From the IMG/VR virus record IMGVR_UViG_2700989400_000004, positions 6,939-70,938 of that record: a stretch of 64,000 bases of DNA; one strand, given 5' to 3'. The notes under the pieces are model-generated. The model was given only the letters and a program-made list of their open reading frames with translations, ran no database searches and was not told where the DNA came from. The position numbers and the translations under genes were made by a program. Shown one piece after another: positions 1,861 through 52,617 of this stretch; the first letter of the stretch is position 1, and each line of letters opens with the position of its first letter. This DNA is from a virus (Duplodnaviria > Heunggongvirae > Uroviricota > Caudoviricetes).

Positions 1861-1925
1861 AATCGTTACCTCGTTTAACGGTTTGGTTAGACGCCCTGCA
1901 TGTGTGCCACCACTGCGGGGCGTTG

Positions 1926-3874: not shown

Positions 3875-3926
3875 GGTTAAATCTCTGTATTAGTGGATGG
3901 GAGGCGGCTGTGTGCCGCCAGCCTGA

Positions 3927-5972: not shown

Positions 5973-6066
5973 ACCGGCGCAGAGGAGACAATGCCGGATT
6001 TAAGACGCGGATGCACTGCTGTGTGTACTGTAGAGTCTGGCGGATGTCGACAGACTCTATTTTTTT
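5973..6066 (+). ncRNA. mcaS: small regulatory RNA McaS (IsrA)
   Basis: ~94-nt unit convergent with abgR as in E. coli K-12; GGA-containing 5' region (AGAGGAGACAAUG); intrinsic terminator stem AGAGTCTG/CAGACTCT (6033-6058) plus T7 run; -10-like TATAAC at 5961-5966. Confidence 0.65.
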
Positions 6067-6074
6067 ATGCAGTT

Positions 6075-6983
6075 TTAACTTTGCAGATAGCCGCATTCTC
6101 GCCGGAATTGCGTGATTAATGACGCGGTCAGTGGTGTCTGGCGACTATCACGCCGCTGAATCAAATAATAGGCCGCTTTCGGTAAAATTTCGCTAACCGG
6201 CAACATCACCAGCCCCTGTCCGTGCAAGGGATCGCAGCCCATTTCTTCAGGCAGTATGCTGAGAAAATCGCTTTTTGCCACCAGACTGATACAGGCTGAG
6301 AACGTCTCGCAGACTACACCGACCTGTGGCGTTTGCGCCTGATCGTCAAGCAATTCACTCAACTGTTTGTAGTAGCTGCCGTGTGGCGTCGGCATTGTCC
6401 AGCTGTAATCCAGTAACTGTTTGATCGAACGGGCACCAATGGCGGGGTGTCCCGGGCGGCAAAAGATCGCGAATTGCTTTTCCAGTAATTTCTCAAAAGT
6501 AAATTCGTGGTCGTACGGTCCCTGATAATAGGTATTGATGGTGAAATCCAATTCTCCCTGACGCAATTCATTAATCATCGACACCAGTTGCCCTTCCATA
6601 ATGCGTACTTTTACCTGCGGATGCTGCTGATGAAAACGAGATATGACAGCTGGCATCAGACTGCGGGAAATACTGGCCCCCATGCCGATATTAATCTGCC
6701 CTGCCAGTTGCCCTTGTCGTTGGCGAATATCCTCTTGGGCTGCGCGCAGTTCTTCAAGAATAAGACTGGCGTGCTGATAAAAACTTTCACCGGCATCAGT
6801 TAACGTCACGCCTTTACTACGGCGAAAAAAGAGTTGCGCCGCTAATCCTTCTTCCAGCTCCTGAATAGATTTACTCAGTGCCGGTTGCGACATATTCAAC
6901 ATTCGGCTCGCTCCGCGAATGCTGCCCTGACGAGCCACTTCAACAAAAGCACGAATTTGATGAATTTTTACCTGAAAAGCCAT
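6075..6983 (-). CDS. abgR: LysR-family transcriptional regulator AbgR
   Basis: 302-aa ORF with N-terminal LysR HTH (…IRGASRMLNMSQPALSKSIQELE…) and substrate-binding domain; divergent from the abgA operon. Confidence 0.9.
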   Translation of the reverse strand: MAFQVKIHQIRAFVEVARQGSIRGASRMLNMSQPALSKSIQELEEGLAAQLFFRRSKGVTLTDAGESFYQHASLILEELRAAQEDIRQRQGQLAGQINIGMGASISRSLMPAVISRFHQQHPQVKVRIMEGQLVSMINELRQGELDFTINTYYQGPYDHEFTFEKLLEKQFAIFCRPGHPAIGARSIKQLLDYSWTMPTPHGSYYKQLSELLDDQAQTPQVGVVCETFSACISLVAKSDFLSILPEEMGCDPLHGQGLVMLPVSEILPKAAYYLIQRRDSRQTPLTASLITQFRRECGYLQS

Positions 6984-7158
6984 GACGCCACCGATAACCG
7001 TTATTTATCAGACCAAAGAAACTGGCATCTACTTTAATGCAGATGATTGTGTCAGGGTAATTTATGAACGGTTAAAACTGTGAAAAATCAGTTAGTGATA
7101 AGTAAAAACTATCGCTACGTGAACCGGGTCACACTTTTTACTGATGACGGGAAAGGTT

Positions 7159-8469
7159 ATGGAGTCTTTGAATCAATTTGTTAATTCGCTTGCCCCAAAA
7201 TTATCGCACTGGCGACGTGATTTTCATCACTATGCAGAGTCTGGCTGGGTGGAATTCCGCACTGCCACCCTTGTTGCGGAAGAATTGCAGCAGCTCGGCT
7301 ATTCACTGGCGCTGGGCCGCGAAGTAGTTAATGAAAGTAGCCGGATGGGACTACCTGATGAACTCACTCTACAACGCGAATTCGAGCGCGCTCGTCAACA
7401 GGGTGCGCTAGCACAATGGATTGCGGTTTTTGAAGGTGGTTTCACTGGTATCGTCGCCACCCTGGATACCGGTCGCCCCGGTCCGGTGATGGCTTTCCGT
7501 GTCGATATGGACGCGCTGGATCTCAGTGAAGAGCAGGATGTCAGCCATCGCCCCTACCGCGACGGTTTTGCGTCATGTAACGCCGGAATGATGCATGCCT
7601 GTGGTCATGATGGACATACCGCCATTGGGCTTGGGCTGGCGCATACCCTTAAACAATTCGAGTCCGGACTACATGGCGTCATCAAACTGATTTTTCAGCC
7701 TGCAGAGGAAGGTACGCGTGGCGCGCGGGCGATGGTCGATGCAGGTGTCGTAGATGATGTTGATTATTTTACTGCCGTGCACATTGGCACTGGCGTACCT
7801 GCGGGCACCGTGGTGTGCGGCAGTGATAATTTTATGGCAACCACCAAATTTGACGCGCACTTCACCGGTACCGCCGCTCACGCAGGCGCAAAACCAGAAG
7901 ACGGTCACAATGCCTTGTTGGCGGCAGCACAAGCCACTCTTGCACTGCATGCAATCGCCCCGCACAGCGAAGGAGCTTCCAGAGTAAACGTGGGCGTTAT
8001 GCAGGCAGGAAGCGGTCGTAACGTTGTTCCTGCCTCGGCGTTGCTGAAAGTGGAAACACGCGGGGCCAGCGACGTCATTAATCAATATGTTTTTGACCGT
8101 GCACAACAAGCGATTCAGGGCGCAGCAACCATGTATGGTGTCGGCGTTGAAACTCGTCTGATGGGTGCAGCTACCGCCAGTTCTCCTTCGCCGCAATGGG
8201 TCGCATGGTTGCAAAGTCAGGCGGCTCAGGTCGCGGGGGTCAATCAGGCCATTGAACGTGTTGAAGCGCCTGCGGGTTCCGAAGATGCCACATTAATGAT
8301 GGCCCGCGTGCAGCAACATCAAGGGCAAGCCTCCTACGTGGTGTTTGGCACACAGCTGGCGGCAGGTCATCACAACGAAAAATTCGATTTTGACGAGCAG
8401 GTTCTCGCTATTGCCGTCGAAACGCTGGCGCGCACCGCGCTCAATTTTCCCTGGACGCGAGGTATCTGA
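7159..8469 (+). CDS. abgA: p-aminobenzoyl-glutamate hydrolase subunit A (M20 peptidase family)
   Basis: Start at MESLNQFVNSLAPKL with GGGAAAGG SD; M20 metal-binding motifs (…MHACGHDGH…); stop overlaps abgB start. Confidence 0.9.
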   Translation: MESLNQFVNSLAPKLSHWRRDFHHYAESGWVEFRTATLVAEELQQLGYSLALGREVVNESSRMGLPDELTLQREFERARQQGALAQWIAVFEGGFTGIVATLDTGRPGPVMAFRVDMDALDLSEEQDVSHRPYRDGFASCNAGMMHACGHDGHTAIGLGLAHTLKQFESGLHGVIKLIFQPAEEGTRGARAMVDAGVVDDVDYFTAVHIGTGVPAGTVVCGSDNFMATTKFDAHFTGTAAHAGAKPEDGHNALLAAAQATLALHAIAPHSEGASRVNVGVMQAGSGRNVVPASALLKVETRGASDVINQYVFDRAQQAIQGAATMYGVGVETRLMGAATASSPSPQWVAWLQSQAAQVAGVNQAIERVEAPAGSEDATLMMARVQQHQGQASYVVFGTQLAAGHHNEKFDFDEQVLAIAVETLARTALNFPWTRGI

Positions 8470-9914
8470 TGCAGGAAATCTATCGTTTTATCGACGATGC
8501 GATTGAAGCCGATCGCCAACGTTATACCGATATTGCCGATCAAATCTGGGATCATCCAGAAACACGTTTTGAAGAGTTCTGGTCAGCGGAGCATCTGGCT
8601 TCGGCGCTGGAATCTGCAGGCTTCACCGTTACCCGCAACGTAGGCAATATCCCAAATGCCTTTATTGCTTCGTTTGGTCAAGGCAAACCGGTTATCGCCC
8701 TGCTGGGAGAATATGACGCCCTGGCAGGTTTAAGTCAGCAAGCAGGTTGCGCGCAACCTACATCCGTGACGCCCGGTGAAAATGGTCACGGTTGCGGACA
8801 CAATTTGCTGGGAACCGCCGCCTTTGCCGCTGCAATAGCCGTCAAGAAATGGCTGGAACAATATGGGCAAGGCGGCACAGTGCGCTTTTATGGTTGTCCT
8901 GGCGAAGAAGGCGGCTCGGGTAAAACGTTCATGGTCCGCGAGGGGGTATTTGATGATGTGGATGCGGCACTCACCTGGCACCCGGAAGCCTTTGCCGGTA
9001 TGTTCAATACACGCACGCTGGCAAACATTCAGGCATCATGGCGCTTTAAAGGGATCGCAGCACATGCCGCGAATTCCCCTCATTTGGGACGCAGCGCCCT
9101 TGATGCCGTAACGTTGATGACCACTGGCACCAACTTCCTCAACGAACATATTATTGAAAAAGCGCGCGTACACTATGCCATCACAGATAGCGGCGGGATC
9201 TCGCCCAACGTGGTCCAGGCGCAGGCAGAAGTGCTTTATCTTATCCGTGCCCCCGAAATGACCGACGTGCAGCATATTTATGATCGGGTCGCCAAAATCG
9301 CCGAATGTGCGGCATTGATGACCGAAACCACGGTTGAATGCCGCTTCGACAAAGCCTGTTCCAGTTATCTCCCGAATCGCACCTTAGAAAATGCCATGTA
9401 CCATGCCCTATCCCATTTTGGTACCCCGGAATGGAACTCCGAAGAACTGGCTTTTGCGAAACAAATTCAGGCTACGCTCACCCCCAACGATCGGCAAAAC
9501 AGTCTGAATAATATCGCCGCAACCGGTGGCGAAAACGGCAAGGTTTTTGCACTACGTCATCGTGAAACGGTACTGGCGAATGAGGTCGCTCCATATGCCG
9601 CCACCGATAACGTGCTTGCGGCATCGACTGATGTCGGCGACGTCAGTTGGAAACTGCCTGTTGCCCAGTGTTTCAGCCCCTGTTTTGCCGTCGGTACACC
9701 GCTACATACGTGGCAACTGGTTAGCCAGGGGCGAACATCTATTGCTCATAAAGGAATGCTGCTGGCGGCGAAAACTATGGCAGCAACCACAGTCAATCTC
9801 TTCATTGATTCAGGGCTATTGCAAGAATGCCAACAAGAGCATCAGCAAGTTACGGACACGCAACCGTATCACTGCCCTATCCCGAAAAACGTGACACCGT
9901 CACCTTTAAAATAA
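8469..9914 (+). CDS. abgB: p-aminobenzoyl-glutamate hydrolase subunit B (M20 peptidase family)
   Basis: 481-aa ORF with M20 signature (…GHGCGHNLLGT…), coupled to abgA. Confidence 0.9.
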   Translation: MQEIYRFIDDAIEADRQRYTDIADQIWDHPETRFEEFWSAEHLASALESAGFTVTRNVGNIPNAFIASFGQGKPVIALLGEYDALAGLSQQAGCAQPTSVTPGENGHGCGHNLLGTAAFAAAIAVKKWLEQYGQGGTVRFYGCPGEEGGSGKTFMVREGVFDDVDAALTWHPEAFAGMFNTRTLANIQASWRFKGIAAHAANSPHLGRSALDAVTLMTTGTNFLNEHIIEKARVHYAITDSGGISPNVVQAQAEVLYLIRAPEMTDVQHIYDRVAKIAECAALMTETTVECRFDKACSSYLPNRTLENAMYHALSHFGTPEWNSEELAFAKQIQATLTPNDRQNSLNNIAATGGENGKVFALRHRETVLANEVAPYAATDNVLAASTDVGDVSWKLPVAQCFSPCFAVGTPLHTWQLVSQGRTSIAHKGMLLAAKTMAATTVNLFIDSGLLQECQQEHQQVTDTQPYHCPIPKNVTPSPLK

Positions 9915-9950
9915 CAACAACAACGCAAACACAACAACCGAGGAATGCCC

Positions 9951-11396
9951 ATGAGTATGTCATCCATACCGTCGTCCTCCCAATCCGGGAAGCTCTATGG
10001 CTGGGTCGAAAGAATTGGTAACAAGGTTCCCCATCCTTTTTTGCTCTTTATCTATTTGATAATCGTACTCATGGTGACGACGGCAATTTTGTCAGCCTTT
10101 GGCGTCAGTGCGAAAAACCCGACCGATGGTACGCCGGTGGTGGTGAAAAACCTGCTCAGTGTGGAAGGATTACACTGGTTTTTACCCAATGTGATTAAAA
10201 ACTTTAGCGGTTTTGCTCCACTTGGAGCGATCCTGGCGCTGGTTTTAGGTGCCGGCCTAGCGGAGCGCGTCGGCTTACTGCCAGCGCTAATGGTTAAAAT
10301 GGCATCGCATGTTAATGCCCGCTACGCCAGTTATATGGTGCTGTTTATTGCTTTTTTCAGCCACATTTCTTCCGATGCGGCGTTAGTGATCATGCCACCG
10401 ATGGGTGCGCTGATTTTTCTGGCGGTGGGCAGGCATCCAGTTGCAGGTTTACTGGCTGCCATTGCAGGCGTAGGTTGCGGCTTTACGGCTAATTTACTGA
10501 TTGTCACAACCGACGTGTTGCTGTCGGGGATCAGCACGGAAGCGGCGGCTGCGTTCAATCCGCAAATGCACGTCAGTGTAATTGATAACTGGTATTTTAT
10601 GGCCAGCTCCGTAGTCGTACTGACGATTGTTGGCGGCCTGATAACCGACAAAATCATCGAGCCACGATTAGGTCAATGGCAGGGAAACAGCGATGAGAAA
10701 CTGCAGACATTGACCGAAAGTCAGCGTTTTGGTTTACGCATAGCAGGTGTCGTATCGCTACTTTTTATTGCTGCGATCGCGCTGATGGTGATCCCGGAAA
10801 ACGGGATATTGCGCGATCCGATTAATCACACCGTGATGCCATCACCCTTTATTAAAGGTATCGTGCCACTGATCATTCTTTTTTTCTTTGTTGTCTCGCT
10901 GGCTTATGGCATCGCTACCCGCACAATTCGACGTCAGGCGGATTTACCGCATTTAATGATTGAACCGATGAAAGAGATGGCGGGATTTATCGTGATGGTT
11001 TTTCCCCTCGCCCAATTTGTCGCCATGTTTAACTGGAGCAACATGGGGAAATTCATCGCCGTGGGGCTGACCGATATACTTGAAAGTTCAGGGCTTAGCG
11101 GCATCCCGGCGTTTGTCGGTCTGGCGTTGCTTTCCTCTTTCTTATGCATGTTTATTGCCAGCGGTTCCGCAATCTGGTCGATTCTGGCCCCCATTTTCGT
11201 ACCAATGTTTATGCTACTTGGCTTTCACCCGGCATTTGCGCAAATCCTCTTTCGTATTGCCGACTCATCCGTATTGCCTTTAGCGCCGGTATCTCCTTTT
11301 GTTCCACTGTTTCTTGGATTCCTGCAACGCTACAAACCAGACGCAAAACTGGGTACTTACTATTCGTTAGTCTTGCCCTATCCGCTTATCTTTTGA
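9951..11396 (+). CDS. abgT: p-aminobenzoyl-glutamate transporter AbgT
   Basis: Start MSMSSIPSS… with GAGGA SD; polytopic membrane protein; C-terminal end abuts the prophage boundary. Confidence 0.85.
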   Translation: MSMSSIPSSSQSGKLYGWVERIGNKVPHPFLLFIYLIIVLMVTTAILSAFGVSAKNPTDGTPVVVKNLLSVEGLHWFLPNVIKNFSGFAPLGAILALVLGAGLAERVGLLPALMVKMASHVNARYASYMVLFIAFFSHISSDAALVIMPPMGALIFLAVGRHPVAGLLAAIAGVGCGFTANLLIVTTDVLLSGISTEAAAAFNPQMHVSVIDNWYFMASSVVVLTIVGGLITDKIIEPRLGQWQGNSDEKLQTLTESQRFGLRIAGVVSLLFIAAIALMVIPENGILRDPINHTVMPSPFIKGIVPLIILFFFVVSLAYGIATRTIRRQADLPHLMIEPMKEMAGFIVMVFPLAQFVAMFNWSNMGKFIAVGLTDILESSGLSGIPAFVGLALLSSFLCMFIASGSAIWSILAPIFVPMFMLLGFHPAFAQILFRIADSSVLPLAPVSPFVPLFLGFLQRYKPDAKLGTYYSLVLPYPLIF

Positions 11397-11488
11397 ATGG
11401 GTAGTTTATTGTAAAATATATTTATATTCAATGCGTTATGTTTTATTTTTGATTTTGATTTATCAATTTGGTCACTATTTGGTACACA

Positions 11489-11516
11489 AAAAGAAACGAG
11501 GCGTTAGCCTCGTTTC
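11489..11516 (-). terminator. intrinsic terminator downstream of tail-fibre gene
   Basis: Stem GAAACGAGGC/GCCTCGTTTC with GTTA loop; T-run on minus strand (ttctttttgtg) just after the tail-fibre stop. Confidence 0.5.
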
Positions 11517-11545
11517 GCGCGGCGATGTTCTTCGCACATCACCTT

Positions 11546-13630
11546 TTACTCTTCGCTTCCGGTCAACTGCTTAACAAGCGCAACCAGTTCGCTTACCTGA
11601 TTTTCAAGCGCGGTAATGCGTGCATCTTGAGTAACTATGGCTATATCTTGATCCTTACATACTCTGACGAGATATCCAACGATGCCGGAGTAATTAACAC
11701 CCAAAACAATTTTTTCACCAGTAAGCACGGTGCCGTCACTTGTCGGTCCTGGCATCTCTTTTGTTATTGTTACTTCGCGAACTACTTGCGGCAATATCTT
11801 TTGCCATTCCTGTGCTATAACACCAGCGCACGCCCTATTATCACCAATAAAATTGAATGTATATCCGTTAACGTGCTGCAATAATTTTCTGGCCTCCTGT
11901 ATTTCCATAATATTTTCTTTTTCATTTATATCTGATGTTTGTGTTAATTCTGAGCAGGAGACTTTACCGGATGTGAAGATATCTGCGGTTGATGTTATTT
12001 TTTGTGAGAAGTTGGCTGTTGCTGTTACGTTCATTTTTCCAGCAAATACAGCGTTGGAGTCCGACTGAAGTTTTGTTTTTGCTCTTACTGTACCTGCGGT
12101 TATTGTTGTTGGCGATGATAACTGCTCCGCATAGGATTGCGCATTGGCTTCTGATTCTGCGGCTGCGGCTGCTGCTGCTGCTGCGTTTTCCGCTTCAGAT
12201 GTTGCGGTGGCGGCACGCTCTTCAGCCAGCACGCTGTAACCCTCTGCAGCGTCTCTCGCGGCTATGGCTTCATCCCGCGCGCTGGTCGCTGTGTTAGCGG
12301 CGCTGGTCGCGGCGGTCGCGGCACTGGTAATGGTAGCCGCCTGTTCAGTTGCAGTGGTTGCCTGCGCCACTGCTTCATCGCGGGCCGCTTCAGTGGCGGT
12401 CTGCGCGGTCTGTGCCGCTTCTGCGGCTTGGGTGGCGGCGGTTGCTTTTTGGGTTGCTGTATTTACGGCGGCTGATATCTTCGATTCGTCTATAGCAATA
12501 CTACTAGCGCTTGCTTCCGCTGCTTCTGCGGCGGTTTCTGCGTCGTTTTTATGCTCAAGCGCTGCGGCGGCGGCAGTGGTTGCCTCATTCGCTTTTTGGG
12601 TCGCTGTGTTAGCGGCGCTGGTCGCGGCGGTCGCGGCACTGGTAATGGTAGCCGCCTGTTCAGTTGCAGTGGTTGCCTGCGCCACTGCTTCATCGCGGGC
12701 CGCTTCAGTGGCGGTCTGCGCGGTCTGTGCCGCTTCTGCGGCTTGGGTGGCGGCGGTTGCTTTTGCTGCCAGTTCTTTTTCATCGATAGCGATATTAGCG
12801 GCGGTTGTTTCTGCTGCTGCGGCTGCGGCTTCGGATTTCTCCGCTTCTTCCTTCGCATACATGCGCAATTCATAAACAGCGGCACGATCTGCCGCTACGG
12901 CTTCGGCATCTGTATTGGCTGCTGCGGCGGCTTGGGTGGCGGCTGACGCCTGTTCAGTTGCTACTGTTGCTCGTTCAGTTGCGACGACTGCTCTCGCGGT
13001 AGCTTCGTCGCGTGCTGCTTCGGTAGCAGTCTGCGCGGTCTGTGCGGCGGTGGCGGCATTGGTGGCGGTAGTAGCTTGTTCGGTCGCTACGGTTGCCTGT
13101 GTGGCGGCGGTGGCGGCTTGTTCACCAGCCAGCACGCTGTAACCTTCTGCGGCATCTTTCGCGGCAATAGCTTCATGCCGCGCGGCGGCGGTTGTTTCAA
13201 CGTCTGCGGCGGTGGCGGCGGCGTTGGCGGTTGATTGCGCTGTTTCTGCCTGAATAGCGGTTAACAGTGCTTCTACCTGCGCGGCATCACCATAATTTTT
13301 CCAGTATTCAACGGCGGCATAGATCTCTGATTCCTGCCCGGTGAAATAGCGTAATGCTTCCGCTACGTCTTGCGCCAGCCCGTCAACTGAGATCGAATCG
13401 CACAGTAAAATACTGTAAGCAGTACCCGCCGGAATATCCGGTGATGCTGCCGGGGTTATAGATAATTCCGTTTCACTGACAATTTCAGTGATGGAAAAGA
13501 TCTGAATAGGGTCGCTTTTTACAATAACTGTGCACCCCACGCGGATCATGGATAAGGGTGCTTTAAAATTTGTACCCGTCCCGGTCAGCGTGTTACCGGA
13601 TACGGCAATACTTCCAATGGTGTAGATCAT
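11546..13630 (-). CDS. tail fibre protein with Ala/Thr-rich repeat rod
   Basis: 694-aa ORF; long A/T-rich internally duplicated segment; C-terminal globular domain (…GYTFNFIGDNRACAGVIAQEW…); last gene of tail module. Confidence 0.7.
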   Translation of the reverse strand: MIYTIGSIAVSGNTLTGTGTNFKAPLSMIRVGCTVIVKSDPIQIFSITEIVSETELSITPAASPDIPAGTAYSILLCDSISVDGLAQDVAEALRYFTGQESEIYAAVEYWKNYGDAAQVEALLTAIQAETAQSTANAAATAADVETTAAARHEAIAAKDAAEGYSVLAGEQAATAATQATVATEQATTATNAATAAQTAQTATEAARDEATARAVVATERATVATEQASAATQAAAAANTDAEAVAADRAAVYELRMYAKEEAEKSEAAAAAAETTAANIAIDEKELAAKATAATQAAEAAQTAQTATEAARDEAVAQATTATEQAATITSAATAATSAANTATQKANEATTAAAAALEHKNDAETAAEAAEASASSIAIDESKISAAVNTATQKATAATQAAEAAQTAQTATEAARDEAVAQATTATEQAATITSAATAATSAANTATSARDEAIAARDAAEGYSVLAEERAATATSEAENAAAAAAAAAESEANAQSYAEQLSSPTTITAGTVRAKTKLQSDSNAVFAGKMNVTATANFSQKITSTADIFTSGKVSCSELTQTSDINEKENIMEIQEARKLLQHVNGYTFNFIGDNRACAGVIAQEWQKILPQVVREVTITKEMPGPTSDGTVLTGEKIVLGVNYSGIVGYLVRVCKDQDIAIVTQDARITALENQVSELVALVKQLTGSEE
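12286..12449. repeat. direct repeat copy 1 inside tail-fibre gene (~164 bp)
   Basis: Near-identical to 12600-12763; encodes repeated …AAQTAQTATEAARDEAVAQATTATEQAATITSAATAATSAANTAT…. Confidence 0.6.
12600..12763. repeat. direct repeat copy 2 inside tail-fibre gene (~164 bp)
   Basis: Near-identical copy of 12286-12449, offset 314 bp in the same frame. Confidence 0.6.
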
Positions 13631-16800: not shown

Positions 16801-18022
16801 TCTTCGGGTCAGTCCAAGATACGATCACGGCGTTATAACATTCCGCACGGGCGATACTTGAACGAGTAAACGCGCCATCAACGACATTTGCATTTGTAAT
16901 AGTGGCGATCGGATCTTGTGGCGCATCGATCATCACCGTAAGGCGTTGTCCGTCCCATAGCGCCATACCTCTGAACATCCCGGCGATATTGTCCAGTAAG
17001 TCGCGGGCGCTCATCTGCTCTGTAATGTACGCATTAAGCGTAACGCGCGGCTCAAGGCCGCCGTAACCATCATTGACTAACTGGTCGCAGTATTGGGAAA
17101 GCGTATATAATGCGCCGTCATCAACATCAATATAGCCAGCATGACGGGCAAGGCCAAAACGCTCGTTTTTAACCAGATAACGGAAGATCCAAGCGGGGTT
17201 ATTAGTGTACGCCTGCTTGAAGCCGCCAAGCCATAATCCTGAGTAAGTGCGCGTTTCCGGGTTGTAGTTATCAGGGATATCAACAATCAGCCCGCGGAGG
17301 TGATAAGTGCGGGTAGGCGTGTCAGCGTACTGATCATGGTCGATCACTGCGCCAGCTATAGCCGTGTGAGGGTAAGATAGGTTATCGTCGATAATTTCAC
17401 TGTAACTATTCCATCGTGTATTGTTGTTCAATAAATCGCCAGTGCTATCGGGTGTAATACGACGAACCCGAATATCGAACGGGCTTTCACTAGGTGCGCA
17501 AATAATATGAGACTCAAGATATTCACCGCTAATTTTACCGGTAATAGAAACGGCTTTAACAGGCGTCCATATCGTTGATGATGATGGTTTTACGTCAATC
17601 ATCATCATAACGGTTGAATTGTATTGATTCCCTTCATCATCGCTTTCTACAAGAACATCCACCCCAACATTCAACCTGACTCGCGTCACGTTGGGATCGG
17701 ATACAGTGCGAACTAACGGGGTGTCGTGTGTTACCTCGGTGTTAACCATAACGGTCGATTCAATAGCATTAAAACCATTGATCGGCGATTGGTTAAGTGT
17801 ACCAGGACGCCAGGCGACACTAACGCCGGGGATACTGACATGACCCGCAGTATCCGTAATAGGTGTATCATTAAGCATCACGCAGTTCAACGGCGCGGCA
17901 GCATTAACCGGACCGTAGATCGGGCCTTCACTCAATATATCTAATACGCGATAAAACTGTTTATGATACAAATTGTCATTAAGTAAATCTGGTGTGCTAC
18001 CGCCACCACCACCACCGCCCAT
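13841..18022 (-). CDS. J: host-specificity / central tail fibre protein (lambda J homolog)
   Basis: 1393-aa ORF; conserved J-type stretches (…LSEGPIYGPV…, …AFGCTSRGQAYRAGKWLIET…). Confidence 0.85.
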   Translation of the reverse strand: MGGGGGGGSTPDLLNDNLYHKQFYRVLDILSEGPIYGPVNAAAPLNCVMLNDTPITDTAGHVSIPGVSVAWRPGTLNQSPINGFNAIESTVMVNTEVTHDTPLVRTVSDPNVTRVRLNVGVDVLVESDDEGNQYNSTVMMMIDVKPSSSTIWTPVKAVSITGKISGEYLESHIICAPSESPFDIRVRRITPDSTGDLLNNNTRWNSYSEIIDDNLSYPHTAIAGAVIDHDQYADTPTRTYHLRGLIVDIPDNYNPETRTYSGLWLGGFKQAYTNNPAWIFRYLVKNERFGLARHAGYIDVDDGALYTLSQYCDQLVNDGYGGLEPRVTLNAYITEQMSARDLLDNIAGMFRGMALWDGQRLTVMIDAPQDPIATITNANVVDGAFTRSSIARAECYNAVIVSWTDPKNGWEQSKEYVADDELIARDGYNETTLEAFGCTSRGQAYRAGKWLIETAKREPSKFTFKMARDAIHFTPGDIIEILDNNRAGARLGGRIVANNGKVITVDKVDSEYITAGDTISLLDSDGKFKKHQITGVNGNEITLAAAPAWIRNGTVFAVSTEAAKPVLCRITSVAETENNSVYTIEAAQHDPNKQAVVDEGAIFEISSDTLNHFRVPNIENLKVVNVGSETVQCRATWETQTTTHPLTFEIRVYNADGRVVASYETTNYRYEFYGLDAGNYTLGIRGRNDTGMKGAESIVDLVIGAPAAPVGVNWVPGVFQATVYPISSTTLTTDTSYEFYYAGENQITDFSQVTTSAQFTGRGYQWTFGGMATGHTYYVYVRTKNAFGVSDFIEASGKPSENFEEITDAVLNEVMEGEQFQNMIKDSIGEVTGGLMGDVEELKQTTVDIDQAVTDLKESTADLEERVKNNEDGIGEHESQINEISVELTEQENELMQTRASLQNAAIALMNNSLANTSTRTTLTAQYKNQKAETKAEIERIDSVIATEKEATAQALTTLESKVNDEISANVTELQQTIATLESSTSQSIEKLESQVNEDIQASLTEINQTITDLESSTAESINNLEAKVDGDISSAISSVDQALATHEQANATQFAQISASLEANEASITEWSEAFTSYQESTATQIESITASIEGQSVSIEENKTAITSLESDMSATWSVKIAADSNGMKYFSGISLGLTGSGTSTQSQCIFLVDRFVLMTAANGTYTTPFYVTNGAMYVREAFIKDASITTAKIAQQIQSSNYVSGSAGWMINKNGNAEFNNVTVRGTVYANSGVFNGTINATDGKFKGVVEATSFVGDVANMGVGPDRVLGYNGSYKATITYNDSTTSALTKSVMLMATITLTSGEYRSTYNVTFSCGGQSKTIQYYVPYGGCTLTVQCAFSGLTTSRITGEIYCPQTSASEGYSYCMALYSPTMLVSRGTGSFSASTTA

Positions 18023-18035
18023 AGTAACCCCCTTA

Positions 18036-18566
18036 TTAACTTACAACATCTAAGGCGTCTTTATTATTGGTTGTGTCAATACCCAGGGAACCAACATTTG
18101 ACCCTATTTTCATTTCACCCAATAAGATTGGAACGGGTCGCCCCTGGCCTACTCTGTTTTCTACACTGGTGTAAGTGTTATTAGTGATGCGCCCATCCTG
18201 CGCACTTTCTGCTGATGTTTGCGGCTTCATGTTGCGATACATATAAATAGAATAAGCGACGCTCGCCACCGTAAGGCCAACCAAAAGCCAACCAACAAGA
18301 CCAATCCCAGCTACCCCGCCCTCGATTAACGGCGCGATAATAATTGTCGTTCCGTCTGGATATTTGTTATTAACAGCCACTACGCAATTTTTTTCATCAC
18401 AATCCCTTCCTGCGATCCGCAATCGTAATGGCGTACCTAAAAATGCTCGCTTAAAATCCTGATTTTGTGCAACCAGCAAGCGAAGTCCCTGCGCTGGTGT
18501 TTCGACATTTAGACACATTTTGCTGTAATATCTTCGGAAATTGCCCGTAAATCTAAATCTGAGCAT
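18036..18566 (-). CDS. I: tail assembly protein (lambda I-like)
   Basis: Position between K and J; hydrophobic central segment; start uncertain (alternative ATG at 18518). Confidence 0.55.
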   Translation of the reverse strand: MLRFRFTGNFRRYYSKMCLNVETPAQGLRLLVAQNQDFKRAFLGTPLRLRIAGRDCDEKNCVVAVNNKYPDGTTIIIAPLIEGGVAGIGLVGWLLVGLTVASVAYSIYMYRNMKPQTSAESAQDGRITNNTYTSVENRVGQGRPVPILLGEMKIGSNVGSLGIDTTNNKDALDVVS

Positions 18567-19242: not shown

Positions 19243-19947
19243 TCACCCTACCTTGCTGGAACCAGGGAAACAGGCGATCGGTAGCGCTGCTGGACGCGGG
19301 AAACGTAAACGACAACCGCTTAGGCGGTGACTGCATCTATCTAAATTCAGATCATTGGTTGGTACATCCTTATCAGTAGCCACCGGACCGCCAGAATACA
19401 TACATCCATCGCCCCTATATTGCCATTGACAAACATCCGCCAGGATAGTCCGGCCTGGGATAATCGCTTTATCTGCGTCAATCGGCGTTGATAACTCATA
19501 CTGAACCTGATCTGCTGTTTCTTCTGCCATTGCTTCAATGACGTAAAAAGATACAGCCTCAATAGATGGATCTGCGTCTGGATTGCCGTTAGGGAAGTTA
19601 ACGGCGTCCAGGTATTTAACCTCCACCTGGCGGCGCGTAACCTTCATTCCTCTAAGGTCGTTGAAATCGTTATTCATCCCCGTAATGAGTCCGCCGATAT
19701 TGGCTACAGCCATTTGAGGACGTGAATAAACGCCCTCGTTTTTCATTTCGAAGCCAGTAGCCTCGATCGGGTAGCTGTTGTAAGTTAATCCCTTCCAGAT
19801 AACCGGGCCGTAATAGCCATTCGCGCCGGAATGGAAGCGGATAACCTCGCCACCCAGGGGCGACAAGTCCAGTTCGAACAAGTCAATCACCGCGCCCACA
19901 CCAGCGTCCACGGAATCAATAATCATCTCTGTAGGTATATTGCGCAT
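19243..19947 (-). CDS. L: minor tail protein (lambda L-like)
   Basis: C-terminal Cys motif (…CQWQYRGDGC…CSHRLSGC…) as in lambda L; ATG at 19947 with GAAGGTGAG SD. Confidence 0.7.
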   Translation of the reverse strand: MRNIPTEMIIDSVDAGVGAVIDLFELDLSPLGGEVIRFHSGANGYYGPVIWKGLTYNSYPIEATGFEMKNEGVYSRPQMAVANIGGLITGMNNDFNDLRGMKVTRRQVEVKYLDAVNFPNGNPDADPSIEAVSFYVIEAMAEETADQVQYELSTPIDADKAIIPGRTILADVCQWQYRGDGCMYSGGPVATDKDVPTNDLNLDRCSHRLSGCRLRFPRPAALPIACFPGSSKVG

Positions 19948-20076
19948 TTTCTCACCTTCTGATTTTGTGATCTGCGTCACGCTAAATCATACCAAAATGG
20001 ATTGATCGCGGTTTATACAATATGTATATTTTACTCAAACGGAAGCACAGTTAACAAAATGGCGCGGAGGTGTGAG

Positions 20077-20232
20077 ATGGCTGATAAGGTGTGGAGGTTG
20101 AAGGTATTCCTGTCAGGTGGCAGGGAAATGACTGTAGCTCTGTATAAAGACGAAGGCGAGGCACTGACTGACGCGCTATTACTCACTGAAGACGAACGCG
20201 TTTTGGGGTACAGAATCGAACCTGTCAAATGA
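20077..20232 (+). CDS. hypothetical protein (moron, 51 aa)
   Basis: Opposite strand to tail operon; GGAGGTG SD 6 nt before ATG. Confidence 0.4.
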   Translation: MADKVWRLKVFLSGGREMTVALYKDEGEALTDALLLTEDERVLGYRIEPVK

Positions 20233-20244
20233 GAGGTTAACGAA

Positions 20245-20592
20245 ATGCAAAAATATAGTCTTGATGTGTGGTTAAGTGGTTGCAAGGAGTGTTTCGGATT
20301 ATTTGATAGCGAAGAGGCAGCTTTGGAAGAAGGAAGGATTCTTGAATGTAGTTTAGGCCATCCAGTGAAATATGCCGCTAATCCGGTGCAGATAATTGAT
20401 GAGGTGGAAAACATGAACCCGAAAGATATTAACTTTAACGTCAATGTTGAATTTGCTGATTCTATGGATCAGTCTTGCCCTGGTGAAATACACGTAAAAG
20501 GTTTCCCGGCAGACGACATGAAAGCGAAACATGAATACGAAAAAGCGGCGAAAGATTTCTGCATCGACAATCTGAGCGCGTTTAATAAATAA
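20245..20592 (+). CDS. hypothetical protein (moron, 115 aa)
   Basis: GAGAGG SD; protein-like translation. Confidence 0.45.
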   Translation: MQKYSLDVWLSGCKECFGLFDSEEAALEEGRILECSLGHPVKYAANPVQIIDEVENMNPKDINFNVNVEFADSMDQSCPGEIHVKGFPADDMKAKHEYEKAAKDFCIDNLSAFNK

Positions 20593-32893: not shown

Positions 32894-33834
32894 TCTTCGC
32901 CATATTTAGCGTGCGCAACCTTATAGTTTTCTTGCGCCCGTTGTTTGATTCGGTTGTTTAATATATTACCGTCTTCATCCACCAATACGGTAATTGTGGT
33001 ACATTTACAGTTAATGGAATTGGGGGAAATACTCCACCATTCGCGCTGTTGTTCGATGGTATAAGTTTTCCCGTGTCGCTGTGCGTGAGTTAGGCGCGTC
33101 GTCGGTGATAATGCCGAAATATGCATTTGCATAGTGCGCAGATTAAATTCTTCTATTGCCGCTTCAGCTTCATCCATACGCGCTGTGCGTAACGCTGTGC
33201 ATATTTCCGTTCGGGCAATACGTTTGCACCTGTATAGCGGCAATTGCGTTTCCTGCTGCAATGTGCGCGCTATTTCCAGTGGATTTAAACCACGGGCCAT
33301 CCCTTCGGTTAATCGCCGGGCCATATCCTTCTTGATCTGTGCTGTTAGCCCGCGCATTTCCTCAAATACACGGGTACGAACAAGGATCAGGCGCGTGCGG
33401 TAGGCTGTGCTGCTTAATACGTCCGCCACTTCAGGATAAGCCCTGGCATATGTGACCGACTGGTTAGCCAGGTTAGCATGTTCTTGTGACGTCCCGCGCT
33501 GATAAGCGACCTTCACATAGTTTTGCCAAAACCAAAATGAGTCAGGATCAGATAGTTCGAATATTTCATCAATCATCCCACCAGCATCATCAAGCAATGT
33601 TTGCAGTTCGTCCATGTATATTTGGAAGGTGTATTTCTTATTCAGTGACTTTTGCGCGGGTATCTTGTCCAGGATGTCGATATAAGGTTGCGCCACTTTC
33701 TTTAAGCACGCCTTAAACCGCTTATCAGCCCCCGACCGTAACTTACCTGTCATGGTCGGGTCTTCGGTATTACTTGGCATTATTGCGGACGGCGGAATCT
33801 TTTTGATTATTTTCTTTATCTTCATCTTCATCAT
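32884..33834 (-). CDS. putative head morphogenesis protein
   Basis: 316-aa ORF directly downstream of portal; start uncertain (internal ATGs at 33780/33753). Confidence 0.45.
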   Translation of the reverse strand: MMKMKIKKIIKKIPPSAIMPSNTEDPTMTGKLRSGADKRFKACLKKVAQPYIDILDKIPAQKSLNKKYTFQIYMDELQTLLDDAGGMIDEIFELSDPDSFWFWQNYVKVAYQRGTSQEHANLANQSVTYARAYPEVADVLSSTAYRTRLILVRTRVFEEMRGLTAQIKKDMARRLTEGMARGLNPLEIARTLQQETQLPLYRCKRIARTEICTALRTARMDEAEAAIEEFNLRTMQMHISALSPTTRLTHAQRHGKTYTIEQQREWWSISPNSINCKCTTITVLVDEDGNILNNRIKQRAQENYKVAHAKYGEDWE

Positions 33835-35152
33835 CCCCGTCTTTCTCTTCTTCCAGTTCTACTTCCTGCGTTGGCCCTTCATATCCGGCAGCTTCGCGGA
33901 TCTCTTCACCGTCGAATATTTGCTCCCCGGTGGCTAAGCACGCCTGATTGATTTGCGCCATCTTATGGGCCGCTTCCAGCATTTCAGCCTTAGTCATGGC
34001 GTTTAGGTCGTCCCATATCACTGATATGTCGGCAGGCATTGCAATCAAGCGAAGGTCAGCCAGCTTGCGGAATAGATCCTCAAGCTCCCCGCCGATTTCC
34101 TCGCGTCGGGTCATACAGCGATTGTTGAAATAGCGTAGATCTTCGGTTGATGCGCGTTCACCCTGCTGATTGCCAACCAGGATACGCGTCGGGATGTCGA
34201 TACCAGCGGCTGCGGTTTGCAGGTTGACGTCATAGGTTGCAGTCGGATCAGGAACGGTTGTTACCAGTGGATTGACGGTAGCGCCTTGTAACGCCATCAT
34301 CACATCATTACCCTTATTGATTTCAGCGGTGGCCTCATTGAACTTCTCGCGTAGCTCTGTGACGTCGCAATCATAGGTTGCAGCCAGGGACCGGAAATCA
34401 ATCTCTTTATCGAACGAGATAGCCAGTTGACGCGCTGCGTTTTTCAGGAATGACTCACCGCTACCACCTTCCACTTTCTCCAGTGAAACAAAGGCGTTGT
34501 AGGACGGCTCAAGAAAGGCTATGGCGTCTTCAGAATAGTCCCCGAAGATAAAAACCCGGTCTGCGTGAATCTTCCTGTTTACGGTCTTCCCGTTAATGCG
34601 TTCTTTGTACTCCCACCAGGTAGGCAGGCCATAGTTCGGCTCATCTGGATCTGCTTCGAAGTCTTTCGGTGTTAATGCACCAGCCCACACAGGCGTAAAC
34701 TTCTCGATCGCTGTTCCCTTAGTTACGGGCTTATCCCACGGTTGGTTATCTTTGACGTGGATTAATAGTCCGGCATAACGACCGATGAGGCGGCGACGGT
34801 CGCATTCTGAGATAGTGCGCCAAAAACGATTATCAAATTGCTTTTTAATCGCCTTTTCCCAGGGTGTTTCTTTTTCGGCGCGTTCATCTTCCGTCCCCTC
34901 GATGATAACCGGGGATGTGCGCCAGCAAGTGGTAATTATCTTTTCGATGGCCCCGTGAGCGATGCCACCGCGACGGTACAGCTTATATAAATCGGTGTAG
35001 GTGATTTCTTCTTTGAATCCGTATTCACTCCATGCTGCGTTACGTTTCGCATCAATACCCATTGAGAATGGATGCGCGGCAGCATAGCGGGTCATGGCTG
35101 CATGACGTTGTGATAATGCAGCATTGACCGCCAATTCAAGGTTTGAAGGCAT
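33770..35152 (-). CDS. portal protein
   Basis: ~460-aa ORF directly after terminase large subunit; acidic C-terminus; ATG at 35152 with AGGAG SD. Confidence 0.6.
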   Translation of the reverse strand: MPSNLELAVNAALSQRHAAMTRYAAAHPFSMGIDAKRNAAWSEYGFKEEITYTDLYKLYRRGGIAHGAIEKIITTCWRTSPVIIEGTEDERAEKETPWEKAIKKQFDNRFWRTISECDRRRLIGRYAGLLIHVKDNQPWDKPVTKGTAIEKFTPVWAGALTPKDFEADPDEPNYGLPTWWEYKERINGKTVNRKIHADRVFIFGDYSEDAIAFLEPSYNAFVSLEKVEGGSGESFLKNAARQLAISFDKEIDFRSLAATYDCDVTELREKFNEATAEINKGNDVMMALQGATVNPLVTTVPDPTATYDVNLQTAAAGIDIPTRILVGNQQGERASTEDLRYFNNRCMTRREEIGGELEDLFRKLADLRLIAMPADISVIWDDLNAMTKAEMLEAAHKMAQINQACLATGEQIFDGEEIREAAGYEGPTQEVELEEEKDGDDEDEDKENNQKDSAVRNNAK

Positions 35153-43400: not shown

Positions 43401-44582
43401 AATATGTCCGTATGAATACCATCTGTTACCTACCCAAATTTGATATTCTTCACCATCATAGTTAATTTTGATTGTAAACTCGTCAACCTCCATTATTAAT
43501 CCTTTATCGAGGATATCATTTAACATATCATCCCATTCTTTGAGAAATGGCTGTTGATAGAAACCGAAAAGTGTATTTGCAGCGTGGCAAAGGTAATCAA
43601 GGATTATTTGCATATTATCACCACATCATATAGTAAACGTTATCATCAGCTAATGCGTCGGCGTCTTCCTGCGTCATGTGCCGCGCTTCCAGAAAGAAAT
43701 CATCATCATGCCATTCACTAACAAGCATACGCGCCCATTTACGGCGGCGTCGCTTATTGCGTCGCAGATCATCAAAAGCCATTAATGCTTTGTCGTATGC
43801 CCTTACAAGGCGCTTACGGTTACTTTTCATTTTCACCTCTCAACATCCAATTTCTGTCACATTTAATTGCGAATACCTTAACAGGATCAGGGCCGAATAA
43901 TGGATGAGTGATAGTTTTTACTTCGTACCCAAAATAAGGAAGGTTAATAATCCTGTGTTTTTCGTGGTTGGCAGGGTATCCCCATTTAATAATCAGGCGT
44001 TCATATTCCCGCCCTTCAAGACGTTTACGCCAATAGTCATTATAAAGCCGGTATTCCTCCACCTTCTTTCCAGTCCATATGGCGTGAAAGTATTCACCTT
44101 TCAGATTCAAATGTAGGTCTTTACTTGCCATCGCTATGATCCTGTAAACAGTCGTTATAGCCTTCTATATATCCGGTTAATCCGGTGTTACTCACTGACC
44201 ATTCAGCCGTCCGGCGCTTGATGGCCTCGTCCATCGTGATTTCACCTTTGCGATGACATCCGGCATCAATATAGCGGTTAACAACCGAAGATAGCCGCCC
44301 GCGTAGCTGTTGTGTTCCGGCGTAATATCGGGCCGTATCCGCAAGCTCGTTAATCAACTGGCGGTAAATATGTTCTTTTAATTTAGGCTTCATTATCGTC
44401 ACCCCGCTTGTAAATTTTGACAGGCTTAATAGGGATGGCGGGCAATTCGCCTTCATTTAATGCGCTTGCCATACCCAATATTAAACGCGCTTCCGCACCA
44501 GTGACTTTCTTACACCATGCGCCGCCTTTTTTATCTTGAAATAAGATAACAGCAAACTGATCGTTTATTTCCAGCTTATCCA

Positions 44583-48602: not shown

Positions 48603-49091
48603 TTAGTCATTATTTGCACCTCTTGCGTATAGCTCTTTACGTGTTATCTGCGTGAAAATACATTCATGTTTGCACCGTGGATGCCAGATCAAGAACAAGC
48701 TCCCTTTATTGTTTCCGCTTGCTGGCTTACCCGTCGCAGCATTAATAAACGCCAGCCGCCCGCGCGTGATTAAGCGACATTCGCTTGCCGTCTCCAGGCC
48801 GTTCATAAACCAGTTAACAGAGATATCAGCGGGCAACAACATTACACAGCCAATATGATTTCGGTGATGTTCCATCGCTGCCTTATCTACGAATGGCCCC
48901 GGATTCGAATATGGCGGATTAAGCCAGACATATTCACCAGGCATTGCTACCGCTCCCCACGGATAATGGAGTGTGTCCATCTCTTCGGTTATATATCGCG
49001 GAACTAATGCGTTTGCCTTGTTTGCCGCCACATCCGCGACGAATTCGAATTCACGGTCCATTCCTCTAAAACGGGTTTTGGCGTTTGCCAT
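48603..49091 (-). CDS. phage-type DNA N6-adenine methyltransferase (Dam-like)
   Basis: …EYVWLNPPYS… catalytic NPPY motif in a ~160-aa phage Dam-type protein. Confidence 0.6.
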   Translation of the reverse strand: MANAKTRFRGMDREFEFVADVAANKANALVPRYITEEMDTLHYPWGAVAMPGEYVWLNPPYSNPGPFVDKAAMEHHRNHIGCVMLLPADISVNWFMNGLETASECRLITRGRLAFINAATGKPASGNNKGSLFLIWHPRCKHECIFTQITRKELYARGANND

Positions 49092-50120
49092 AAGTCCTTT
49101 ATTTCTTTTGGCGTATGGCTTCCGCCGTAATCATTTTTCATTACGCCCCCTTAGAAATAATCCTGATCTGCTCCCCAGCGGTTATTCAGATATCCCACCA
49201 ACCACACAAAACGCTCAATACTGATTAGCGGGGCGACCTTGCGATAATGCTTATCTAATATCAGCCGCGTGGCTTTATCGCTATATCCGTTTCTTTCTAC
49301 CTCTGCTTTGCAGGCAGAAAGCGCCGCGCGTGCGGCAGTTTTTACGGCGTTGAATTGCGGCTCTGACAGGTTGAATAAAGCCATATAATCACCACGGATC
49401 ATCTCAATAAGTCGAGGCCACCCAGAAAAAACCCACGAAAACACTAAAAGCGAATAGCACGCGTATACCCAAAAGCAATTCCGCCCACGACTGAACATCA
49501 GGAAGCGACCATGTGATAAACATTGCGCCGACGATCAGGACGGCAATAACAACGGCGCACGCCAGGAAAAATAAAAGCGCGGCTGAAAGCCACGCCCCAA
49601 AAAAGTGAAACACTTCTCTTAACATTTAAACGTCCTCAATTACCCCGCCTTTCACGCGTTCTTTAATATCCCATACGTGAGGCTTACACATTTCTTGATA
49701 ATAGTGATCCGGCCTGCTGCCGAAATACCATTTGCCATCCATATAAAAATAAACGCCCGAAAAATTACCAGGTGCGGCCTTTGTTGCTGCTTCTGGAATT
49801 TTCCATTCTCTGTAGTGTTTAAACTTCATACATTAACACCGCCTTTTTAAGTTCGCTTAATTCAAAGTGCATCAAGCGAAAATGCTGTACACCGCCAACA
49901 ATACTGACCTGATAAATATCACCAACGCAGTTATAGTAATAACAACCCAATTGACCGATTCCGGCTAATTTAGCGTTATCCGGTATCATGTATTCGCCAA
50001 CCTTTTTCATATTCAGCCTCACAAATATTTTTCAATCACCCAGCGGAGAAACAAACCAACCGCCACGATCCCCCAGCAACAAACCATGAAGTAAAACTCG
50101 GCCTCATTCGCACTCATTCC

Positions 50121-50658
50121 TTACCTCCCGTGGTTTTCATGATACCCGTACTCGATTTCAGCTTTACGCCTCGCTTCGATCGCTTCATCTATGCTATCTG
50201 AGTAGCATAGATATTTTTTCTTTCCGTCAACGGTAATATAAGATCTCCATTTCTGAGTTAATTTATCCCAATAAACACCCGTGCATCCAGAAGTGTTATT
50301 TTTCTGCTTAGCTCTATTCTTTGCGTTTTCCTGTCTCGTCACTATTCGAAGGTTATCAAGCCTATTATTAAGGCGATTATGTCTATATGGTCTATTTGAT
50401 AGCCTTCCGGGATTGGGCCGTTGTGCATCTCCCATATTATCCTGTGAACGCAATACCTTTTCCCGCAAAACATAAACCCCTGTACCCACCCTCATACAGA
50501 GTACTCCCTGCTACGTCTCCGGCTTTAACCCTGAAACCAGTAGGTTTCTTCCAAATTAGATTGACTCCGTCGTAATAAAACCACTCTCGCCAGTCAATAG
50601 CGTCCATTGTGTTTTCCCTCTTCCCAAGCGAAATACCCGACAAAACCAACCAGAACAA
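50121..50658 (-). pseudogene. HNH-AP2 homing-endonuclease-like gene split by a frameshift
   Basis: 50121..50495 carries HNH (…YRHNRLNNRLDNLRIVTRQEN…) and AP2-like (…GVYWDKLTQKWRSYITVDGKKKYLCYSD…) motifs; the N-terminal-like part is in another frame (50437..50658). Confidence 0.4.
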
Positions 50659-52617
50659 TCAACCAGCAAGCCAGGATTAAATCAATCAGCCACATGATTA
50701 AGCCTCCATAACCGCGTAATCGAAGCGCCCTAAATACATCTCGATGCCGATCATCTCGACGCCCTGGACGTCCGCGCCCCATACAGTTACGTGATAAGCG
50801 TCCTCCCGCCATTGTTCATGGCTTAGCACTTCGTTTGCTGGATATTTCCGCCCCGCGACGTAAGCGCCCGGACCTACGCCACCTTCTACGCAATACAGCA
50901 TGATCTGGTTTTCCATATCGCACCTCGTTAATAGCAAACTGCGTACATACAGATCCCGTTGTTAAAGGCTTTGATGATCATGTCGATGACCATGTAAACG
51001 AGCATTACAGCCGCCGCTGGGACAAGGATCGCGAATAGTCCGCCTAACGTGCGCTCAATAATGAAATGCGGGTTTACTTTGCTTTTGTGGTTACGTTCAA
51101 AGTTTGTCATCTTCCCGCCCTCCGTGCTGTATACCTTTCGACTTCAGTTTACAAAACGGATACAGCGGGACAATACAAAATGTATATTTATGTGATCGGT
51201 ATCACGCGATTAATGCAGTACACGTTTTTCCGGGTGAGGCATTGGCTGTGCACGTTTCCGCGCTTCATTCAGCACTGACGCCACCGCCCGGACGCCAAAA
51301 TCATTAGCCCGCATATCATTGCCGACCATCTCGCCATAAATAAGCGGCATAAATTGCCTTGCGTTATCCTCGATGTGTCCATTTTCAACCGCTTTCTGAA
51401 GTACGCCAGCCTCAAGGATATCGCGCATCAGTTCACGGATTGTATATAATGAAGCACTACCCATCGCCCCTTCGCCCAGCGGGACAATCACCGCGCTACC
51501 ATATGCAAGCGGATCCAGTTCTTCCGGTACTGGTACACGTCCAAAATCTTCTTCCATGCGTTTTACGAAAGTAAGGCAGAAGACGTAACGCGCTACCGAT
51601 GTTTTCTCTTCCGCATTCAAAGATACGTAATCGCGCATTGACGCATCCATTACAAGATCAGCAATTTGTAGCGCCAGGTTTAAATCCCCGTCATACACGC
51701 CCGCGTCCATATCTTTAATGACTTCGTGGTAGTTCTTTGTTTCCACTTCATGAAAACATGCGTCCTCTGTGTAGCGAGTGATTAACATGCCTTCGCTGCC
51801 AAGTGAATAAGCTGTTTTGATGTCGTTCATGATATTTATCCTTATAACGGGTGATGCCATCGCATTTCAGTTTCTGAATTAAACGGGATACCTTCGCTTG
51901 AAAGGAATAAATCACGCTCCCGTTTCAGTTCTTCCGGGCTTATTTCTATTTCATCAATCTGACCGAACGATCCCGGCATCATTCTTTTTAAATCAGATAG
52001 CGGACGCATAAGGCCGCAACCGCGTAACAGCATATCGACCGCGAATTGTCTACGTCCGGCGGCGTCATTAAAGCGCCGTGCCCAGGGCACAACCACGATC
52101 CGGCGTTCGAATTCGATAAATAGTGATAGCTTGTTTGTTTCGCTATCATATGCTTTATGGAATTTAATTTTCATTTAACACCTCGACGTATTGCTCAAGA
52201 TGCCATTTACCCACCTCGTCGTCTTCTTCATCAAATAATGTTACTTGACCCCCTGGCCCGAAAGAAAAGGCAGCGACAATAAATTTATAGCCATACCACG
52301 TGCGGATCTTTTCGCCGCCTTTCAGGTCTTTAACTTTCACTAATTTTATAGCCATACGCCAAACATCCCATTCAATCCGGCGAACAACTGCCGCCAGTGG
52401 TCTTCAACATAAGCCCGGAAAGGCTTAACGCGAACATTGCGGGCCTTCAGCGTGATACTGTCAAAATAACGCGGCTCGATCAGCGTACCATCAAGGTATT
52501 GAACGAGGATCGGGCGCTCAAAGTCGCTACATGTTTTATTCAGCACGACCAGACCGGGGTCACTACGATATGCGGGCAAAACAACGAGATCACCCGCCTT
52601 TGCATCCCATAACATCA

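Follow-up and report, generated by a model that had tools for sequence, protein, structure and literature searches.

Split reading frames and probable recent inactivation of an HNH-AP2 homing endonuclease gene in a lambdoid Escherichia coli prophage

I-HmuI, from the Bacillus phage SPO1, is an HNH nicking endonuclease encoded by a group I intron. Its C-terminal DNA-binding region differs from that of the genes considered here, and is not an AP2-like module. Programmed -1 frameshift sites, on the other hand, are known from the λ G/GT genes, at G_GGA_AAG, and from E. coli dnaX.

The endonucleases of the HNH-AP2 family (PHROG 99), found in phages, cyanobacteria and protists, share an N-terminal segment, an HNH_3 domain and a C-terminal AP2-like module. 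Among the ‘IPA-HNH’ homing endonuclease genes (HEGs) of Vibrio phage ICP1, gp115 and gp116 have been described as an HNH gene parted from its AP2 portion by a frameshift (PMC10448857). A graded series of degenerating HNN/HNH-AP2 genes has been described in the Xanthomonas phages Xp10, OP1 and Xop411 (PMC2248197).

Here, we describe a broken gene of this family, carried by the 64,000-nucleotide stretch of DNA that was analysed (the window). It has the habits of the family, whose members are free-standing between phage genes, patchily distributed among close relatives, and frequently frameshifted or degenerate. It differs from the other HNH-AP2 cases by residing in a temperate lambdoid E. coli prophage, by having two frameshifts, and by an AP2 module that scores below the Pfam threshold. 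Compared with the intron-encoded I-HmuI, it is free-standing and inactive. It is nothing new in kind, being another case of the known decay of HEGs.

Reading frames and family of the gene

Translation of all three minus-strand frames revealed that the endonuclease coding sequence is spread over the three of them (Table 1), for a total of 487 nt, versus 489 nt for an intact allele presented below. A profile HMM built from 34 intact homologs was run against the whole 64-kb window. It matched three segments that tile the profile, and had no match in the window beyond these. The original prediction had announced an HNH-AP2 gene interrupted by a single frameshift and distributed over two frames. 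The disruption was confirmed, but it involves two frameshifts and three frames. In the alignment to intact homologs, which it had proposed as a check, the 34 homologs are single ORFs, and the tiling of all the pieces by the HMM exceeds by far what chance would give.

Table 1. Features of the broken gene and its surroundings. Positions are those of the window, except in the last line.
Feature	Position	Strand	Description
HNH-AP2 homing-endonuclease pseudogene, whole	50121..50607	-	ATG 50607-50605; stop TAA 50123-50121
Frame A: N-terminal DNA-binding-like segment, MDAIDWREWFYYDGVNLIWKKPTGFRVKAGDVAGSTLYEGGYRG...	50437..50607	-	family HMM positions 2-47 (E = 1e-8)
Frame B: first HNH half including catalytic residues, ..FCGKRYCVHRIIWEMHNGPIPEGYQIDHID	50342..50473	-	HNH_3 positions 2-25 (47 bits); family HMM positions 44-74 (E = 7e-16)
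Frame C: second HNH half, HNRLNNRLDNLRIVTRQENAKN, and AP2-like C-terminal module, SGCTGVYWDKLTQKWRSYITVDGKKKYLCYSDSIDEAIEARRKAE	~50380-50121	-	HNH_3 positions 26-45 (24.4 bits); family HMM positions 73-159 (E = 3e-38)
G_GGT_TTA heptamer, frame A	50473..50479	-	directly 5' of lesion 1; form of a -1 slippery site
Lesion 1	50467..50472	-	intact GGTTTA-TTTTTTT-GC (T7), window GGTTTA-TGTTTT-GC
Lesion 2	50381..50382	-	intact ATAGATCATAAT, window ATAGA-CATAAT
Left insertion junction, ATGGACGCT	50599..50607	-	RM9245 identity (99.3%) ends at 50599
33-aa hydrophobic ORF, MWLIDLILACWLIVLVGFVGYFAWEEGKHNGRY, upstream of the HNH gene	50594..50695	-	in RM9245 and GCA_031702445.1, not in mEp013
32-aa membrane-peptide gene, downstream of the HNH gene	50019..50117	-	homologous to mEp013_35 and to the MDAEMIF... 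ORF in RM9245
Prophage dam, frameshifted	49004-49141 and 48603-49091	-	lesion at 49068-49071
HNH genes of the E21845/O/A prophage	10283-10750, 17648-18175, 19847-20335, 33630-34121, 43747-44229		positions in its own locus

The frame A piece ends at a premature TAA, giving a 56-aa product (P0121), and corresponds to the N-terminal part of I-HmuI by profile-PDB matching. The frame B piece reads ..FMFCGKRYCVHRIIWEMHNGPIPEGYQIDHID.. and continues with out-of-frame residues up to a stop at 50342. In RefSeq, it is recorded as the 43-aa WP_077825984.1, ‘HNH endonuclease signature motif containing protein’. The frame C piece reads ..HNRLNNRLDNLRIVTRQENAKNRAKQKNNTSGCTGVYWDKLTQKWRSYITVDGKKKYLCYSDSIDEAIEARRKAEIEYGYHENHGR, with its stop at 50121. 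Two ORFs had been reported at the outset, 50121..50495 and 50437..50658, and an ORF check found both. The first was said to unite the HNH and AP2 motifs. It does contain HNH_3 positions 26-45 and the AP2-like module, but positions 2-25 are in a third-frame ORF, 50342..50473. The second was said to hold an N-terminal segment, which the family HMM bears out; its upstream TTG start, however, was mechanical, and the true start is the ATG at 50607.

The Pfam HNH_3 profile (PF13392) is divided between the ORFs of frames B and C, the score of the latter falling just under the gathering cut-off of 24.8 bits. A reconstruction joining the three frames, like the intact allele, has a contiguous HNH_3 match of 84.8 bits, over profile positions 2-45 of 46. 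No ORF of the window holds a complete HNH (beta-beta-alpha-metal) motif: H55, D73 and H74 are in frame B, N86 and N98 in frame C (residues are numbered after the first sequence of the homolog alignment). The window gene is thus a member of the HNH endonucleases by descent, and not a functional one. Only short fragments could now be translated from it, one of 56 aa and perhaps others of 43 and 104-124 aa, and no nuclease activity is expected from this allele. The locus should be annotated as one pseudogene with two frameshifts, rather than by the 43-aa entry, although the importance of this case beyond annotation is small.

Membership in the family was examined with the intact allele, the reconstruction and the family profile. 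The intact allele matched PHROG 99 ‘HNH endonuclease’ (phrog_99) with E=2.3e-71. By tblastn, the reconstruction covered 98-100% of intact ~160-aa genes annotated as HNH or ‘homing endonuclease’; these come from over 1,200 phage records and are 50-55% identical to it. It also aligned with about 220 database protein clusters at identities up to 59%. Residues H55, D73-H74, N86, R88 and N98 are kept across the family alignment, as is a C-terminal module of the form SG.TGV.W.K...KW.A.I.V.GK...LG.F....DA..ARK. The family profile matched residues 1-112 of I-HmuI (PDB 1u3e), which comprise the N-terminal DNA-binding region and the HNH motif (E=5e-9), and its positions 102-151 matched the AP2 domains of the plant proteins WRI1 (7wq5) and TEM1 (7et4), with E ~1e-3. 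Pfam AP2 was matched by 24 of the 34 homologs at E<=0.01 (best value 1.3e-6), while the reconstructed protein alone scored 16.7 bits, for a cut-off of 33.3. Given the matches of the family to both AP2 and HNH, the name ‘HNH-AP2’ is, as judged from sequence comparison, probably right for the family as a whole.

The intact allele and the origin of the two frameshifts

The intact allele, WP_311021365.1 (P0122), encodes 162 aa and was found in the E. coli assembly GCA_031702445.1 (contig JASNGT010000012.1). It occupies the equivalent position in a related prophage, with the small hydrophobic ORF on one side and the gene-35 variant of the window on the other. The 56-aa product of frame A clusters with it at >=90% identity, and 158 of its 162 residues are identical in the reconstruction, the remaining 4 being different. 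A base-level alignment of the window with this allele showed 6 substitutions and 2 one-base deletions, all within the first ~270 nt, whereas the final 260 nt of the gene are 100% identical. Such a small number of differences, together with the identical last 260 nt, indicates that the decay is young.

Lesion 1 combines the loss of one T with an adjacent T-to-G change, and displaces the frame by -1, from A to B (GGTTTATTTTTTTGC in the intact allele, GGTTTATGTTTTGC in the window). It is preceded within 20 nt by four further substitutions. No second copy of this substitution patch is present within the window, so that there is no evidence for intragenomic gene conversion. Lesion 2 is the loss of a single T outside any homopolymer. 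It also causes a -1 change, from B to C, and falls between HNH_3 profile positions 25 and 26; in longer context, the window reads ATAGACATAAT. The WP_311021365.1 allele is open throughout, with T7 and GATCAT at the places that read TGTTTT and GACAT in the window.

These observations lead us to consider it very probable that a free-standing HNH-AP2 HEG, situated in the early region of an E. coli prophage, was recently inactivated by two real, independent single-T deletions. The gene would be non-essential and unselected in the window lineage. For this reason, a T7 run prone to slippage, along with another random deletion, could have killed it. Among the three explanations initially put forward, a decaying homing-endonuclease gene is the one that agrees with the intact allele at the locus, the empty sites in relatives and the two independent 1-nt deletions.

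It could be, instead, that the real genome has an intact gene, from which base-calling artefacts of sequencing or assembly removed the two T's. Lesion 1 indeed sits where the intact allele has a T7 homopolymer. A third single-T loss is found 1.3 kb away, in a T5 run of the prophage dam gene, and all three affect the same base on the same strand. By our own estimate, the probability of finding three single-T deletions (two in the HNH gene and one in dam) in 1.5 kb is ~0.002 if three events fall at random over a 52-kb prophage, and this clustering could point to a region of locally poor assembly. In addition, the broken allele is recorded from one assembly only, and the viral, metagenome, GTDB and complete E. 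coli collections gave no other copy, so its two deletions have no independent confirmation. The HNH gene was absent from 5,426 complete E. coli genomes, among which megablast of the locus matched the upstream 152 nt alone. DNA patterns across lesion 2, exact or flexible, and from the conserved 3' half had no match in IMG/VR, JGI metagenomes or GTDB genomes.

However, several internal controls speak against an artefact. Over the 11.4 kb flank (window 1-11394), identity to strain 442/2 is 99.73%, with 26 mismatches and zero 1-nt indels, the sole indel being a 5-nt repeat-unit difference in an intergenic region. When the 86 annotated proteins of the E21845 prophage were compared with the window by tblastn, the HNH gene and dam were the only frame-split loci. 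None of the other ~70 prophage genes with E21845 homologs was split, and the terminase, portal, head, capsid, tail, lysis, helicase, NinG, RusA and Q genes are all full length in a single frame. Lesion 2 took away a T that stands alone (A-T-C context), unlike a homopolymer error, and lesion 1 is not a plain T7 to T6 contraction, as it reads TGTTTT and has four substitutions nearby.

The dam lesion could be compared with independent sequences. In its intact form, this gene (N-6-adenine methyltransferase, PF05869) reads CCCGTTTTTAGAGG (T5) and encodes 179 aa, as in GCA_031702445.1, RM9245 and mEp013. The window reads CCCGTTTTAGAGG (T4), and its ORF of 162 aa, starting with MANAKTRF..., is without the N-terminal WQTP segment. 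The same 162-aa product was found in Logan and in another, independent E. coli assembly, where other substitutions follow downstream (P0128); 16 contigs carry a related 162-aa form. This recurrence indicates that the dam deletion is genuine; it is a widespread, recurrent allele. The clustering of T deletions would then be explained by purifying selection elsewhere, in a phage that is still viable, and by relaxed selection on a dead, non-essential gene. With these internal controls of flank indels and prophage gene frames, the sequencing error that had been envisaged from the start appears unlikely.

A third explanation was programmed ribosomal frameshifting, in which two -1 recoding events would yield the full-length endonuclease, perhaps to limit the level of a toxic nuclease. 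Both frame changes are in the -1 direction, and lesion 1 lies immediately 3' of a heptamer of canonical X_XXY_YYZ form, G_GGT_TTA, placed in the incoming frame, in which respects the locus is similar to the known programmed -1 sites. A -1 slip at this heptamer would produce ...GYRGLMFCGKRY..., one residue off the ...GYRGLFFCGKRY... of the intact protein. However, the intact allele has the same heptamer, which there simply codes for R-G-L. The fold downstream of it is weak (z=-1.9, equalled in 6 of 200 shuffles), with a spacer of ~2 nt. At lesion 2 (GAC-ATA-ATC), there is neither a slippery motif nor a homopolymer that would permit transcriptional slippage. The frameshift is not conserved, since the sister allele and each of the 34 aligned homologs consist of a single ORF, of ~155-170 aa, and the yield of two serial recoding events would be negligible. 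Contrary to known programmed sites, the window has no homolog-conserved shift, no convincing stimulatory structure and no second-site signal. Programmed frameshifting, which we regard as next to impossible, was rejected on these grounds: no signal at the second site, a heptamer shared with the intact allele, an unremarkable fold and unshifted homologs. The gene is an ordinary, recently dead mobile gene, and not a recoding signal, and its kind of decay is well documented.

A putative product of frame C

Another possibility is that the decayed gene has been exapted, and now expresses an AP2-only DNA-binding protein, dead as a nuclease, from the 124-aa ORF of frame C (50495-50121). Such a product might serve in regulation, for example, or block related endonucleases. 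The start codon of this ORF, the ATG at 50495, was created by a GG to TA substitution specific to the window and missing from the intact allele; a GGGAG lies 8 nt upstream, and the ORF keeps the entire AP2-like module. Moreover, co-option of HEG DNA-binding domains has been reported in the literature, for CapR and plant AP2 (PMC10448857). If the same were true here, the locus would show, at an early stage, the kind of domestication by which plant AP2 factors and ICP1/PLE CapR are proposed to have arisen. However, the ATG at 50495 is located inside the translated ORF of frame A, and an open out-of-frame stretch of 37 codons would not be improbable by chance. The exact 124-aa product had no record in the databases, and dN/dS is uninformative, because only two alleles are available and their 3' 260 nt are identical. 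We therefore hold exaptation to be very improbable, and retain the simple decay of the gene.

Lesion 2 also destroys a GATC (Dam) site of the intact allele, and the dam gene of the window prophage is altered as well; this is probably a coincidence. A functional connection between the loss of the phage Dam methylase and that of the GATC in the HNH gene would be still more speculative than exaptation.

Insertion site and prophage setting

The site of the HNH gene is empty in the prophages of E. coli RM9245 and E21845 and in phage mEp013, and filled in the window and in GCA_031702445.1. This is a presence/absence polymorphism at one locus among close genomes, of the kind expected of free-standing HEGs. 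In RM9245, identity to the window is 99.3% from 51300 down to 50599, then jumps to 50091, where it is 88%. The nine bases of the left junction begin the HNH ORF in the window, and in RM9245 they begin the gene of a 30-aa membrane peptide, the gene-35 homolog (MDAEMIFMACCCGIVAVGLFLRWVIEKYL). The window counterpart of this gene, which follows the HNH gene and encodes 32 aa, differs from that of RM9245 by its N-terminus, MSANEAEFYF, and its ribosome-binding site, GGGAGG, is within the 3' end of the HNH gene. On the other side, the 33-aa hydrophobic ORF is part of the backbone rather than of the insert, and its stop overlaps the HNH start.

Family membership and polymorphism of the site suggest that the intact allele is an active endonuclease capable of homing. 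In a cell that also contains a related phage without the HEG, the intact enzyme would nick or cut the allele of that phage close to the insertion site, and recombinational repair would then copy the HEG into it. In such an enzyme, DNA recognition would be ensured by the N-terminal and AP2-like modules, and catalysis by the HNH motif. We looked for a higher conservation of the HNH gene than of its flanks between the window and GCA_031702445.1, as a signature of recent homing, and it was not found. Identity between the two is a mosaic throughout, mostly at 96-100%, with a ~70% patch in the gene-36 homolog, and such a profile gives no specific evidence of recent homing. The gene-36 patch, at window 49800-49999 (minus strand), is ~100-300 nt downstream of the HNH gene, and its flanks are at 97-100%. 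It could be a recombination boundary, as reported beside phage nuclease genes.

The GCA_031702445.1 prophage carries a second HNH gene directly upstream, which is not present in the window. This gene, of 165 aa (P0018; 5429-5926 of the GCA_031702445.1 locus, equivalent to window ~50696-50700), is of an unrelated lineage, with ~50% identity. It has been inserted after the gene-34 homolog and before the small hydrophobic ORF, with its stop overlapping the start of this ORF. This prophage thus has two tandem HEGs, ~75 nt apart.

Five HNH genes of the same family as the HNH-AP2 pseudogene were found in the E21845/O/A prophage, all at other positions. One precedes erf, another follows the DUF6378 gene region, a third lies between ninG and rusA, a fourth separates the head morphogenesis gene from the next head gene, and the fifth adjoins a ParE-like toxin gene. 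None of them is present in the window, where the pseudogene is the sole copy of the family. The mEp021 phage group is therefore rich in HEGs, and the intergenic spot studied here is known in empty, singly occupied (by an intact or a dead gene) and doubly occupied states. Together, the empty, intact, broken and doubly occupied versions form a natural example of the cycle of HEG gain and decay in temperate coliphages, and they could serve as a starting set from which to map the target of the intact allele.

The window segment 53473-47342 is 100% identical to a locus of the E. coli draft genome GCA_001420135.1 (contig LIVK01000004.1). Positions 1 to ~11394 of the window are chromosomal, with a P4-like integrative element followed by abgR-abgA-abgB-abgT. 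From ~11.4 kb to the window end extends a prophage of the mEp021 group of lambdoid phages, with 84-87% nucleotide identity to mEp010, mEp013, mEp044 and MagusPhagus. Genes at 48-53 kb of the window are carried by the minus strand. The prophage continues past window position 64000, which places its integrase end beyond the window. It occupies the same chromosomal site as the sister prophage of strain E21845/O/A. The prophage junction, at window ~11394-11571, is at the 3' end of abgT, adjoining the position of ogt in strain 442/2. The P4-like element itself is small (window 1-5700), adjoins abgR and is 99.7% identical to its counterpart in E. coli 442/2; it encodes a tyrosine integrase, a DUF927 primase-like protein, an Icd-like protein and an AntA/AntB antirepressor.
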